Assembly: GCF_003334255.1 (NCBI RefSeq) | Contig: NZ_QOWU01000053.1 | Reading direction: 5' to 3' (one strand) | From: Escherichia coli | GTDB taxonomy: Bacteria > Pseudomonadota > Gammaproteobacteria > Enterobacterales > Enterobacteriaceae | Length of the DNA stretch: 39,954 nt | Part shown: positions 29,190 through 32,232 of the stretch, in pieces | How the letters are laid out: each line of letters begins with the position of its first letter | Numbering within the stretch: the first letter of the stretch is position 1 | The notes under the pieces: generated by a model | The model's database searches: none | What the model saw: only the letters and a program-made list of their open reading frames with translations | What the model was told of the DNA's origin: nothing | Position numbers and translations under genes: made by a program

Positions 29190-30242
29190 TTATTTTTTAG
29201 CAGAACCCGCTTCTAATATTGAAACGATTGAGAACAACGTAAAGCATACCGCTCCCAAACCGACCAGAACTCGCGAAGGAATAAAATATCCCATGTCGGT
29301 CTGCGCCATTTCCGCAAGAAACGATGCCAGGAAAAGGCAAAACAGGCAGGTGAAGACGGGAATCATCGGTATTCTGTTGGCTAACGAACAGGTACGTCTC
29401 CATACCAGTGCCAGTAGCCAGACTTTTGAGAATATGCTGTAACAGATCATTCCGAGGCAAATAAGAATAATGCCGGGAGCCAGTCGGGCGCTTGCATCGG
29501 AACTGACTAAGACGTATATCCCCTGCAGTACCGTGATTGAGCCGAGAAAAATAACCCAATAACACCACAGCCAGTGTTCTTTAGTTGAAAACGTATTACG
29601 TGTTTGATGGACAATTGTGGCAACAAGGCCAATTAGACAGGCACAGATTGCGGTTAACCCAAGCAATACGTGACCCGCGACATAATGCGGAGTTATGTCA
29701 GCACTACGTAACAGCGTAATAGACCAAATGAAACCGAGCAGGGTGAGTAAAACGGGAACGGCAATGAGGCAGTTACCGATTAATGAAGAATAAGCCTGTA
29801 CCGGTGTTCCGTCGCTCTTGCTCCCCGCTGCATTTTTGGGAATGAGCAGAAAGTGACCGGATGACGCTGCCACCGTCGATACACAGGCGGCAATCATACC
29901 AACGCCGAAAATAACATGGCCGGCGACAAACTCGTCTGCCATCACATCATTGCCTGCTAACAGTGCCCAACCCCATATCATGGTGATAATTGACCCCGCA
30001 TAGCCAATAATGGGGAACAATGTATTGTAAAACGTATTAACGCCGCGCGTGAGCTGCGAAATGATAATAAATGCGGTAGTGAATAATGCCAGGCATATGG
30101 CCGCCAGAGAAATCAGCACATGACCCGCGACGAAATACTCGCTTTGCCCTGAACTTTCCAGCACAAAGCCACCTAACGCGATACAAATTAAGCCCATAAT
30201 CAAAGGGATTAATTTGAAAAGCCACCCGATATATATGTTCAC
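29190..30242 (-). CDS. yhiM: Inner membrane protein YhiM
   Basis: GTG start at 30242 giving VNIYIGWLFKLIPLIMGL... (350 aa); track ORF starts further upstream. Confidence 0.85.
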   Translation of the reverse strand: MNIYIGWLFKLIPLIMGLICIALGGFVLESSGQSEYFVAGHVLISLAAICLALFTTAFIIISQLTRGVNTFYNTLFPIIGYAGSIITMIWGWALLAGNDVMADEFVAGHVIFGVGMIAACVSTVAASSGHFLLIPKNAAGSKSDGTPVQAYSSLIGNCLIAVPVLLTLLGFIWSITLLRSADITPHYVAGHVLLGLTAICACLIGLVATIVHQTRNTFSTKEHWLWCYWVIFLGSITVLQGIYVLVSSDASARLAPGIILICLGMICYSIFSKVWLLALVWRRTCSLANRIPMIPVFTCLFCLFLASFLAEMAQTDMGYFIPSRVLVGLGAVCFTLFSIVSILEAGSAKK

Positions 30243-30624
30243 TTTAAACTCCTCAGGTATCCCTGCTAATATTGAAATATGCATTAATGATAATTTCATC
30301 CTGTTAATATAATGACGAGATATCATTAAAGACAAATGCATAGCATAACTATAGCGGGGTTTACTTTGCAGAGCGCTACTTTTCAGCGTTCAAAAGGCCA
30401 TGATAAATAAAAATTTATCCTAAGATTAATTCTTATGCTGTTGTTTTTTACAATTATCTTCCAGGGAGGGATTATTCTTCATTATTTGGTAAAAGACCGG
30501 ATAGTCTCGGTGCTTAAAATCAGCGAACATATAAGTATTATTATTTTATATCGTCGTAAATCTGTTTTTCAGACAAGTATCATTTATTTTGTTACAAACA
30601 ATTCAAAAATATCACAGGTTATTT

Positions 30625-32232
30625 ATGAAAGCAATTGACAATCAGATTAGAAACATCTCTTCAAGCCATCAAGATAAGCATTCAGATAAAGTTAACAGTC
30701 ATCAACACCATGGCAAGGTTGATAAAACACATCGTGCAAAGATAGTTGAATTTGATAAACTGGATAATGATTCGCAAATAGATAACGATTTTGGCCTGCA
30801 TATCATCTATTTCCTGCAACATGGTCACTGGAAGGTAAATGATCGTAGTCACCAGATGGAGAAAGTATGGTTTTATAATAGTGAACCTTCTATAGATATT
30901 CAAGAATATAATAGATTCGCCGACAATACTACTGATACGTTTATCTTTACAATTATACCAGACAATAACCATGTGTTAAAATTATCGTCTCCCATTACCG
31001 TTACTGTTGAGTGTAAGGGCGGTTATTATTTTATTAATTCCTCTGGAGATAAATCAGATATAATTTATAAAGTTGATGGGCTTTCTATCATAGCGAGAAA
31101 TTTCTTTACTCTTCTTAGTGGTAATTTCAAACCTGACTGGCGTTGGGATGTCTCTAAAGAGACGTTTACTAAGGAAAAGTTTGATAGCTATGTTAAATCT
31201 GTGTTTTCAAAAATAGACTTCTATAAACAGTGTGGTGTGATTAACCCACAAAATGCCAACACGGCTTATTTTGGCGATACAGATGGAAGAGTAGGCGCTG
31301 TACTTTATGCATTGCTCGTTTCAGGGCATATAGGCATCAGGGAAAAGGGTTGGAGTTTATTATGTGAATTATTAAAACACGAAGAGATGGCTTCATCTGC
31401 ATACAAACATAAAAATAATAAAGTGCTCTACGATTTATTAAATACGAGAGACATGATCTTGAATGAGTTGCATCAACATGTTTTTTTAAAGGACGATGCG
31501 ATAACCCCTTGTATCTTCCTTGGGGATCATACAGGCGATAGATTTAGTACTATTTTTGGTGATAAATATATCCTTACTTTGCTAAATTCTATGCGAAATA
31601 TGGAGGGTAATAAAGATAGCCGTATTAATAAAAATGTCGTCGTTCTGGCTGGAAATCATGAAATCAATTTTAATGGTAACTATACTGCACGACTAGCAAA
31701 TCATAAACTCTCTGCCGGTGATACGTATAACTTAATTAAAACGCTCGATGTTTGTAATTATGACTCAGAAAGGCAAGTTTTAACCAGTCATCACGGAATA
31801 ATAAGAGATGAAGAAAAAAAATGTTATTGTCTCGGTGCTTTGCAGGTTCCATTTAATCAGATGAAAAATCCTACTGATCCTGAGGAATTAGCCAATATTT
31901 TTAATAAAAAACATAAAGAACACATGGATGATCCTCTATTCCATCTAATCCGAAGCAATACTTTGAAACCCACACCTGTATATGCTAATTATTTTGATAA
32001 CACTACTGATTTCAGACCAGCACGTGAACGTATCTTCATATGTGGGGAGACACTCAAAGGTGAAGACCCCAGCAAATACATTAGACAAAAATATGGGCAT
32101 CATGGGCCCGGGGTAGATCATAATCAACAATTTGATAATGGTATTATGGGGCTAAATTCCCTGAAGGAAGCACGTGATAAAAATAATAAAATAATTTATT
32201 CCTCAGGGCTTAGTTGTTTTCAACCACATTAA
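30625..32232 (+). CDS. yhiL: Uncharacterised protein YhiL, intact (YhiJ paralog)
   Basis: First ATG at 30625 (MKAIDNQIRN...), 535 aa; track ORF begins at an upstream TTG; AT-rich; shares motifs with the next gene. Confidence 0.75.
   Translation: MKAIDNQIRNISSSHQDKHSDKVNSHQHHGKVDKTHRAKIVEFDKLDNDSQIDNDFGLHIIYFLQHGHWKVNDRSHQMEKVWFYNSEPSIDIQEYNRFADNTTDTFIFTIIPDNNHVLKLSSPITVTVECKGGYYFINSSGDKSDIIYKVDGLSIIARNFFTLLSGNFKPDWRWDVSKETFTKEKFDSYVKSVFSKIDFYKQCGVINPQNANTAYFGDTDGRVGAVLYALLVSGHIGIREKGWSLLCELLKHEEMASSAYKHKNNKVLYDLLNTRDMILNELHQHVFLKDDAITPCIFLGDHTGDRFSTIFGDKYILTLLNSMRNMEGNKDSRINKNVVVLAGNHEINFNGNYTARLANHKLSAGDTYNLIKTLDVCNYDSERQVLTSHHGIIRDEEKKCYCLGALQVPFNQMKNPTDPEELANIFNKKHKEHMDDPLFHLIRSNTLKPTPVYANYFDNTTDFRPARERIFICGETLKGEDPSKYIRQKYGHHGPGVDHNQQFDNGIMGLNSLKEARDKNNKIIYSSGLSCFQPH

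Follow-up and report, generated by a model that had tools for sequence, protein, structure and literature searches.

The window analyzed here, a stretch of 39,954 nucleotides (nt) from Escherichia coli (contig NZ_QOWU01000053.1 of assembly GCF_003334255.1), carries on its minus strand, at positions 29190 to 30242, the gene yhiM, which encodes an inner-membrane protein of 350 amino acids (aa). The coding sequence consists of 350 codons between a GTG start (30240 to 30242) and a TAA stop (29190 to 29192), and its DNA is 100% identical to the gene annotated as "yhiM: DUF2776 domain-containing protein" in complete E. coli genomes. The product matched the Pfam family DUF2776 (PF10951) with an E value of 1.3e-158, residues 1 to 347 aligning with positions 1 to 347 of the 348 in the model, which identifies YhiM by sequence as a full-length member of this family and a known E. 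coli protein; no NCBIfam family model matched it. A Shine-Dalgarno sequence (GAGGAG, 30249 to 30254, minus strand) was found 6 nt upstream of the GTG, and experimental mapping has placed the translation start at this GTG and the transcription start 22 nt before it (PMC6604978). Because of these two features, the 350-aa product was favored over the 383-aa open reading frame (ORF) given in the mechanical ORF list, which was discarded.

Matches to yhiM were detected in 4251 of 5426 complete E. coli genomes (4181 with at least 80% coverage). The gene is interrupted by an IS1 insertion in at least one E. coli genome, and many of the E. coli and Shigella DUF2776 entries in the AlphaFold database (AFDB) are fragments. 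This patchy presence sits oddly with the core-gene label used in PMC11005409. The family as a whole is found in Proteobacteria, Actinobacteria, Bacteroides, and Fusobacteria.

The original prediction, made from the sequence alone, held that YhiM is built from repeated membrane modules marked by the pentapeptide VAGHV, with three full copies and a degenerate one at the C terminus. The four strings that it quoted lie exactly at aa 36 to 53, 104 to 121, 186 to 203, and 324 to 334, and VAGHV does appear three times (aa 38 to 42, 106 to 110, and 188 to 192), when only 0.005 copies of AGHV would be expected from composition and any 5-mer occurred three times in just 7 of 20,000 residue shuffles of the protein. 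The self-alignment proposed as a check gave much more than generic hydrophobicity. The best off-diagonal Smith-Waterman alignment of YhiM with itself scored 139, against 40.7 ± 6.8 in shuffles (z of about 13 to 14), and its traceback placed residues 1 to 277 on 68 to 343, i.e., a shift of one unit over the whole protein; the next-best alignments corresponded to shifts of two, four, and three units. Thus, internal duplication was upheld and the count was revised, since self-alignment delimits five tandem units of about 65 to 80 aa, each with two transmembrane helices, and the fourth had been missed (aa 222 to 287, with the motif ARLAPGIILICLGMICYSIF; APGIILICLGMIC).

The same picture emerged from profile comparisons. 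When a 115-sequence DUF2776 alignment was cut into five unit slices and these were compared profile to profile with hhalign, all ten pairs matched (scores of 29.2 to 81.7, probabilities of 80 to 99%, and E values of 1e-5 to 1e-17). The strongest pair was unit 1 with unit 3 (score of 81.7, E = 1.8e-17), and even the overlooked unit 4 matched the others with probabilities of 93.6 to 97%. Comparing the hidden Markov model (HMM) of the family with itself recovered the shifts of one, two, three, and four units at E values of 1.3e-22, 2.3e-23, 3.5e-9, and 3e-8, respectively.

Transmembrane segments often align spuriously, and only short strings had been noticed at the outset, which gives some ground for attributing the repeat to chance or compositional similarity among hydrophobic helices, with no real duplication behind it. 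Several controls speak against this. Reversed targets, which retain the hydrophobic helix-turn-helix layout, never scored above 14.9 in hhalign, and 200 column shuffles gave a mean of 10.0 (standard deviation of 2.3, maximum of 18.6), so that every unit pair outscored every reversed and shuffled control. In self-alignment, YhiM (z of 13.4) stood far apart from seven other membrane proteins, namely PitA (5.8), a YhiI-like protein (4.7), the ORF at 12569 to 13792 (3.6), a YhhJ-like protein (3.4), TehA (2.0), DtpB (1.0), and the ORF at 14859 to 16169 (-0.9), and generic hydrophobicity therefore fails to explain its repeat. Besides, the HMM self-comparison yielded all four register shifts, and corresponding residues of the units occupy the same offsets within the five predicted helices described below. 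We consider a chance origin refuted by the self-alignment, shuffle, reversal, and HMM controls, with hardly any probability left to it.

At the DNA level, the repeats inside yhiM are restricted to 15 to 26 nt encoding the motif, with 65 to 77% identity. Given this limited resemblance, the duplications must be ancient, which fits the presence of the family in several phyla. No free-standing single-hairpin relative was recognized among 258 representative hits, the short ones being high-identity fragments of full-length proteins. Overall, YhiM was very probably built by repeating an ancient two-helix membrane hairpin of ca. 65 to 80 residues five times in tandem, which gives it a five-fold architecture. 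This architecture is itself already public; the additions made here are a stated register of the five units in the sequence, a consensus for the motif, and a comparison with TehA. In the papers found to mention DUF2776, neither the five-fold sequence repeat nor the Gly/His/Cys motif is described.

The units, delimited by self-alignment, hhalign, and an AlphaFold2 (AF2) model, follow each other on the minus strand from the start codon downwards. Unit 1 (aa 1 to 67; 30042 to 30242) comprises a predicted outer helix (aa 3 to 29), a periplasmic turn, and an inner helix (aa 34 to 64) that carries the motif core VAGHVLISLAAICLA at aa 38 to 52 (30087 to 30131), with G40, H41, and C50; its codons GTC GCG GGT CAT GTG were read directly. 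Unit 2 (aa 68 to 150; 29793 to 30041), with helices at aa 70 to 95 and 102 to 130 followed by the longest cytoplasmic linker, has its core VAGHVIFGVGMIAAC at aa 106 to 120 (29883 to 29927), where G108 and H109 are accompanied by a displaced C120. Unit 3 (aa 151 to 221; 29580 to 29792; helices at 153 to 179 and 184 to 214) contains VAGHVLLGLTAICAC at aa 188 to 202 (29637 to 29681; G190, H191, C200). In unit 4 (aa 222 to 287; 29382 to 29579; helices at 220 to 247 and 251 to 279), the core APGIILICLGMICYS at aa 255 to 269 (29436 to 29480) combines G257 and C267 with I258 at the histidine position. Unit 5 (aa 288 to 350; 29193 to 29381; helices at 293 to 312 and 317 to 347), the most conserved of the family, has IPSRVLVGLGAVCFT at aa 321 to 335 (29238 to 29282), with S323, R324 in place of the histidine, and C333.

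Conservation was counted across 115 DUF2776 relatives, with a divergent subset of 23 sharing 24 to 58% identity. VAGHV turned out to be the start of a conserved core in the second helix of each hairpin (helix b), with the family consensus [A/P]-G-[H/R]-V-L-x-G-L-G-x-I-C. The motif glycine was present in 110 (G40), 114 (G108), 112 (G190), and 111 (G257) of the 115 sequences, and position 323 was occupied by alanine (83) or serine (30). Five residues downstream, glycine was found in 113 (G113), 109 (G195), 109 (unit 4, C262 in E. coli), and 114 (G328) relatives, with serine (60) or alanine (39) in unit 1, and two residues further on in 104 (G115), 110 (G264), and 111 (G330), with threonine (84) or alanine (17) in unit 1 and alanine (52), serine (42), or threonine (15) in unit 3. 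The cysteine was conserved in 111 (C50 and C120) or 114 (C200, C267, and C333) sequences. It lies at +10 from the motif Gly/Ser in four units (C50, C200, C267, and C333) and at +12 in unit 2, and it is nearly invariant in every unit even at 24 to 30% identity.

The histidine position behaved differently from what had been supposed, namely that each unit holds a conserved His and a conserved Cys. The statement is right for the cysteine and only partly so for the histidine, which is confined to three units (H41 in 97, H109 in 109, and H191 in 103 of the relatives) and varies in the divergent ones, where H41 was kept in 9, H109 in 19, and H191 in 18 of the 23 and some subfamilies have Pro or Ser instead. 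Position 258, an Ile in E. coli, is occupied by Cys in 75 relatives and by Phe, Tyr, or Trp in divergent members, and R324 was found in 102. Units 4 and 5 thus retain the Gly/Ser, the downstream Gly, and the Cys, with Ile (mostly Cys in relatives) and Arg replacing His. As judged from the alignment, the universally conserved core of the motif is made of Gly or other small residues plus Cys, the pattern expected for close helix packing. E. coli itself departs from the family at three sites, aa 202, 258, and 262 (codons at about 29637 to 29639, 29469 to 29471, and 29457 to 29459), with C202 where 88 of 115 have Ser, I258 where 75 have Cys, and C262 where 109 have Gly. Its YhiM has extra cysteines in units 3 and 4 but none at the His-equivalent position of unit 4.

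The AF2 model, obtained from a 97-sequence alignment, was of high confidence (predicted local distance difference test [pLDDT] of 91.9 and predicted template modeling score [pTM] of 0.91) and contained ten long helices, each unit being composed of a helix a, a turn of 3 to 6 residues, and a helix b. The b helices start at residues 34, 102, 184, 251, and 317, and the motif residue (G40, G108, G190, G257, or S323) comes exactly six residues later in all of them. With this offset, the His position would come some two helical turns in from the periplasmic end, and the +10 Cys near the middle of the membrane. The topology prediction that had been suggested as a check, based on the AF2 model and the charge distribution, gave ten transmembrane helices with both termini in the cytoplasm (N-in/C-in) and the hairpin turns in the periplasm. 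Cytoplasmic linkers and termini have 10 K+R and 3 D+E, against 2 K+R and 9 D+E in the hairpin turns, and it is these basic linkers and acidic turns that fix the orientation by the positive-inside rule. The same 10-helix, N-in/C-in topology was predicted previously (PMC6604978).

The two helices of the hairpin differ clearly in their conservation. Helices b had a lower mean entropy than helices a (1.74 versus 2.07 bits), a larger fraction of small residues (0.41 versus 0.28), and a weaker helical periodicity of conservation (0.20 versus 0.51), the last being what burial on every side would produce; helix a shows one conserved and one variable face, as expected of lipid-exposed helices. As a positive control, pore helices of E. 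coli TehA gave an entropy of 0.12 and a small-residue fraction of 0.49, compared to 0.37 and 0.28 in its outer helices, with helix boundaries that are approximate and of our own assignment and pore helices identified from the SLAC1 architecture (PMC11260165). Since helices b combine low entropy, small residues, and weak periodicity, and the measure works on TehA, we infer that the five motif-bearing b helices probably form a central parallel ring with the a helices wrapped around it. The AlphaFold model of YhiM has been described as "based on five central helices" in a 2024 protein-design paper in which AlphaFold models were searched with designed barrels (PMC11288890). In our reading, the predicted chain closes into a five-fold ring, i.e., a pseudo-pentameric barrel.

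Fold searches reproduced the result of that paper from the other direction. With Foldseek, no natural protein in the PDB was retrieved at E ≤ 0.001, the best matches being the de novo single-chain parallel alpha-helical barrels 8qag, 8qah, and 8qai, and the 35 hits obtained in AFDB50 at the same threshold were all DUF2776, with no other family sharing the fold. The model appears to show a defining feature of this class of barrels, a closed ring of at least five parallel central helices joined via outer helices; contiguous knobs-into-holes packing around the ring is another hallmark of the class (PMC11288890). Nevertheless, the designed sc-CC-5/6/7/8 barrels (8qkd, 8qag, 8qai, and 8qah) and the toroids 6xr1 and 8u1a are soluble, have 5 to 12% identity to YhiM, and share no ancestry with it, whereas YhiM is a natural membrane protein whose repeat stems from gene duplication. 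We know of no homologue of YhiM whose structure has been solved. Homopentameric channels of the MscL type also arrange a hairpin of two transmembrane helices five times around a central axis. In contrast to them, the copies of YhiM are fused in one chain and have diverged, so that the ring is asymmetric (His, His, His, Ile/Cys, Arg).

Among natural proteins of solved structure, the layout of YhiM is matched only by the five-hairpin SLAC1/TehA anion channels, although Foldseek itself did not retrieve them. As in SLAC1, SLAH, and TehA, the model has ten transmembrane helices arranged as five hairpins with quasi-five-fold symmetry. Members of that channel family also carry a conserved phenylalanine on TM9 that gates the pore, and they assemble as homotrimers. 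Membership in that family (PF03595) was rejected, as no sequence or profile relationship was found by any of three approaches: a Pfam scan of YhiM gave DUF2776 alone, with no PF03595 hit at E ≤ 10, the DUF2776 profile searched against PDB sequences returned only noise (E ≥ 0.058, with no TehA or SLAC1 chain at E ≤ 1), and hhalign of DUF2776 with TehA gave a probability of 0.5%, using a shallow TehA alignment (number of effective sequences of 1.4, the listed relatives all having >81% identity). There are further differences. In SLAC1/TehA, it is the odd, or first, helix of every hairpin that lines the pore, whereas the conserved, small-residue-rich helix of YhiM is the second (even) one, so that by this indirect conservation test YhiM departs from the odd-helix rule; if its b helices are the inner ones, the ring would run from periplasm to cytoplasm, with a polarity opposite to that of TehA. 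Also, the repeat is undetectable in the sequence of TehA and obvious in that of YhiM. By analogy, YhiM plausibly works like a SLAC1/TehA protomer, yet it is not assignable to PF03595.

A proline near the beginning of the first hairpin helix was seen in both proteins. In YhiM, it appears as LIPL, LFPI, AVPV, and MIPV (aa 13, 77, 163, and 295), with P13, P77, P163, and P295 each conserved in at least 112 of the 115 relatives and unit 4 lacking it. In TehA (sequence L015, 2574 to 3566), NLPA, LFPA, YLPT, and LAPA (aa 10, 87, 144, and 207) were read by eye. The Pro-bearing helices are pore helices in TehA and apparently outer ones in YhiM, which may be a coincidence or a hint of distant ancestry or permutation.

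Regarding the genomic context, the original prediction had placed YhiM in an acid-resistance setting. This is true of its regulation, as yhiM is a monocistronic gene under GadE/GadX control (PMC6604978), and does not extend to physical linkage. The beginning of the acid fitness island (slp, dctR, yhiD, hdeB, hdeA, and hdeD, at about 8700 to 12400 of the window) lies ~17 kb from yhiM, and some 15 unrelated genes, including ars, gor, prlC, dtpB, uspAB, pitA, and yhiN, separate the two; the link is regulatory and not one of tight proximity. On the other side, yhiM adjoins two plus-strand ORFs (30589 to 32232 and 32764 to 34116; 547 and 450 aa) that are paralogues of the YhiJ/YhiL family, one of which is annotated as frameshifted in a closely related strain that is 100% identical across yhiM. 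We also inspected the flanks of eight homologues from Alphaproteobacteria, Betaproteobacteria, Actinobacteria, and metagenomic contigs for which they could be read. No neighbor was conserved among these eight, and gene neighborhood was discarded as a clue to function. TrkH (immediately downstream, L002/L003), MscL (~1 kb upstream, L012/L013), a Na+/H+ exchanger with a TrkA_N domain (~5 kb away, L006), EamA, and a major facilitator superfamily protein were seen once each, and the first three were for that reason not counted as conserved. In Clostridium perfringens, the yhiM homologue lies between gadC and gadB (PMC6604978), an arrangement that did not recur in the eight neighborhoods sampled.

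Three phenotypes have been published for yhiM. In one study, the gene was dispensable for glutamate- and glutamine-dependent acid resistance and not needed for extreme acid resistance, its deletion lowered the export of gamma-aminobutyric acid (GABA) by about 50% at pH 5, and its overexpression raised GABA export with no significant effect of pH between 2.5 and 5.5 (PMC6604978). In uropathogenic E. coli (UPEC), the deletion caused copper resistance, a lower cellular copper content under copper stress, and constitutive Cpx activation that was independent of NlpE, with no acid phenotype (PMC11005409).

The "MXXXM copper motif" that the UPEC study reported at the N terminus of YhiM (PMC11005409) is apparently the MGFKM of a 354-aa gene call (P0002) with 90% identity to the YhiM analyzed here. 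Its second Met corresponds to the codon equivalent to the mapped GTG start of K-12, and its first ATG occupies the site where K-12 has its Shine-Dalgarno sequence (ATGGGGTTTAAAATG versus GAGGAGTTTAAAGTG; window 30240 to 30254, minus strand, and L016 401 to 415). If P0002, a candidate for the CFT073 allele, is the protein in question, deleting "XXXM" would take away what is probably the true start codon, and this alone could account for the partial loss of function.

Taking these data together, we lean slightly toward a reading of YhiM as a five-hairpin barrel with a ring of b helices, held together by a packing motif and enclosing a narrow conduit. The invariant Gly and small residues and the mid-membrane Cys would mainly allow the five helices to pack tightly. 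H41, H109, H191, and R324 would sit at one level, ~10 Å below the periplasmic surface, and may line the entrance to a narrow central pathway as a basic collar. On the most economical account of its function, each protomer might then act as a gradient-driven conduit for small solutes, in the manner of SLAC1/TehA. This function is tentative, proposed by analogy, and we regard it as a real possibility that falls short of being probable. It fits the phenotypes in that the presence of YhiM goes along with an easier exit of GABA and an easier entry of copper.

Several observations weigh against this reading. The His triad is not universal in the family, and the homologues in other taxa have no conserved neighborhood. 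The authors who described the copper phenotype, seen in UPEC and not in K-12, explain it by constitutive activation of Cpx and not by transport (PMC11005409), and GABA export is merely halved in the mutant. The cavities of designed five-helix barrels were too narrow for a dye (PMC11288890), for which reason the passage of GABA through a five-helix pore is not assured. The four Cys at +10 share a helical stripe with the invariant Gly, suggesting an interface position, and the one in unit 2 is two residues out of register, so that the five Cys would not make a symmetric ring. Finally, all structural evidence comes from prediction, and the facing of the His, Arg, and Cys side chains, like any open pore, is conjectural.

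The polar residues of the motif could instead be its point. Under this alternative, raised in the original prediction, the repeated His and/or Cys would be titratable or metal-binding sensors. Acid in the periplasm might protonate the three His and thereby gate or activate YhiM, or H41, H109, and H191, together with the Cys found at position 258 in most relatives, might bind copper directly, making YhiM a protein that senses pH or copper or conducts copper. In favor of this, the three His are predicted to share a single depth close to the periplasmic ends of their helices, 75 of the 115 relatives have Cys at the matching site of unit 4 (which would give a His3-Cys set beside a conserved Arg), and the near invariance of the Cys at 24 to 30% identity exceeds what a purely small-residue requirement would demand. 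In addition, yhiM shares its regulation with acid-resistance genes and influences the export of GABA at pH 5 (PMC6604978), and the UPEC mutant resists copper and accumulates less of it (PMC11005409). However, E. coli has Ile and not Cys at 258, H41 is found in just 9 of the 23 divergent relatives, Pro or Ser takes the place of the His in some subfamilies, and the geometry of the side chains is conjectural. GABA export by overexpressed YhiM was not significantly pH dependent (a mild argument), and extreme acid resistance was independent of YhiM (PMC6604978); the UPEC mutant had no acid phenotype, its copper effect was put down to Cpx and had no comparable counterpart in K-12 (PMC11005409). We judge a sensor role unlikely.

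Nor does the packing pattern by itself demand a pore. The motif may be purely architectural and YhiM a compact, non-conducting bundle of ten helices, serving as a scaffold or partner (for example, modulating CpxA or GadC) with indirect phenotypes. The top-conserved motif positions are Gly, Gly, Gly, and Cys on one helical stripe, typical of close helix contacts, and five-helix barrels are very narrow (PMC11288890). Loss of YhiM activates CpxAR constitutively without NlpE (PMC11005409), and the GABA and acid phenotypes are partial and strain dependent (PMC6604978, PMC11005409). On the other hand, the only natural five-hairpin proteins solved, SLAC1, SLAH, and TehA, are channels or transporters (PMC11260165), and overexpression alone lifts GABA export (PMC6604978). 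A conserved set of polar or charged His and Arg residues within a membrane helix ring would be costly unless functional, and in several phyla the gene stands by itself, with no conserved partner. Such a scaffold also seems unlikely to us, and the support for it and for the sensor role is comparable to, but somewhat lower than, that for the conduit.

A more speculative extension of the conduit reading, to which we give a low probability, is that DUF2776 constitutes a second lineage of five-hairpin single-protomer channels, one whose duplications can still be read from its sequence and which is independent of SLAC1/TehA or inverted in topology with respect to them. Inversion is considered because the pore helices would run the opposite way through the membrane. 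The His-His-His-(Cys/aromatic)-Arg collar might then act as a pH-sensitive filter excluding cations and protons, or as a copper site.

The SLAC1/TehA analogy is testable, and the gain it offers is incremental, the architecture being already available in the public AlphaFold model and in print. The five-unit register makes residues of different units equivalent and thereby provides a rational mutagenesis set, with G40/G108/G190/G257/S323 for packing, H41/H109/H191/I258/R324 for the collar, and C50/C120/C200/C267/C333 for the mid-membrane Cys. The mechanism of YhiM matters since its three published phenotypes (acid survival, GABA export, and Cpx-linked copper sensitivity) are partly in conflict. 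If true, the collar of the second lineage, located where five parallel helices have their N-terminal, positive-dipole ends, would make the phenotypes in GABA export, acid survival, and copper compatible with one another.

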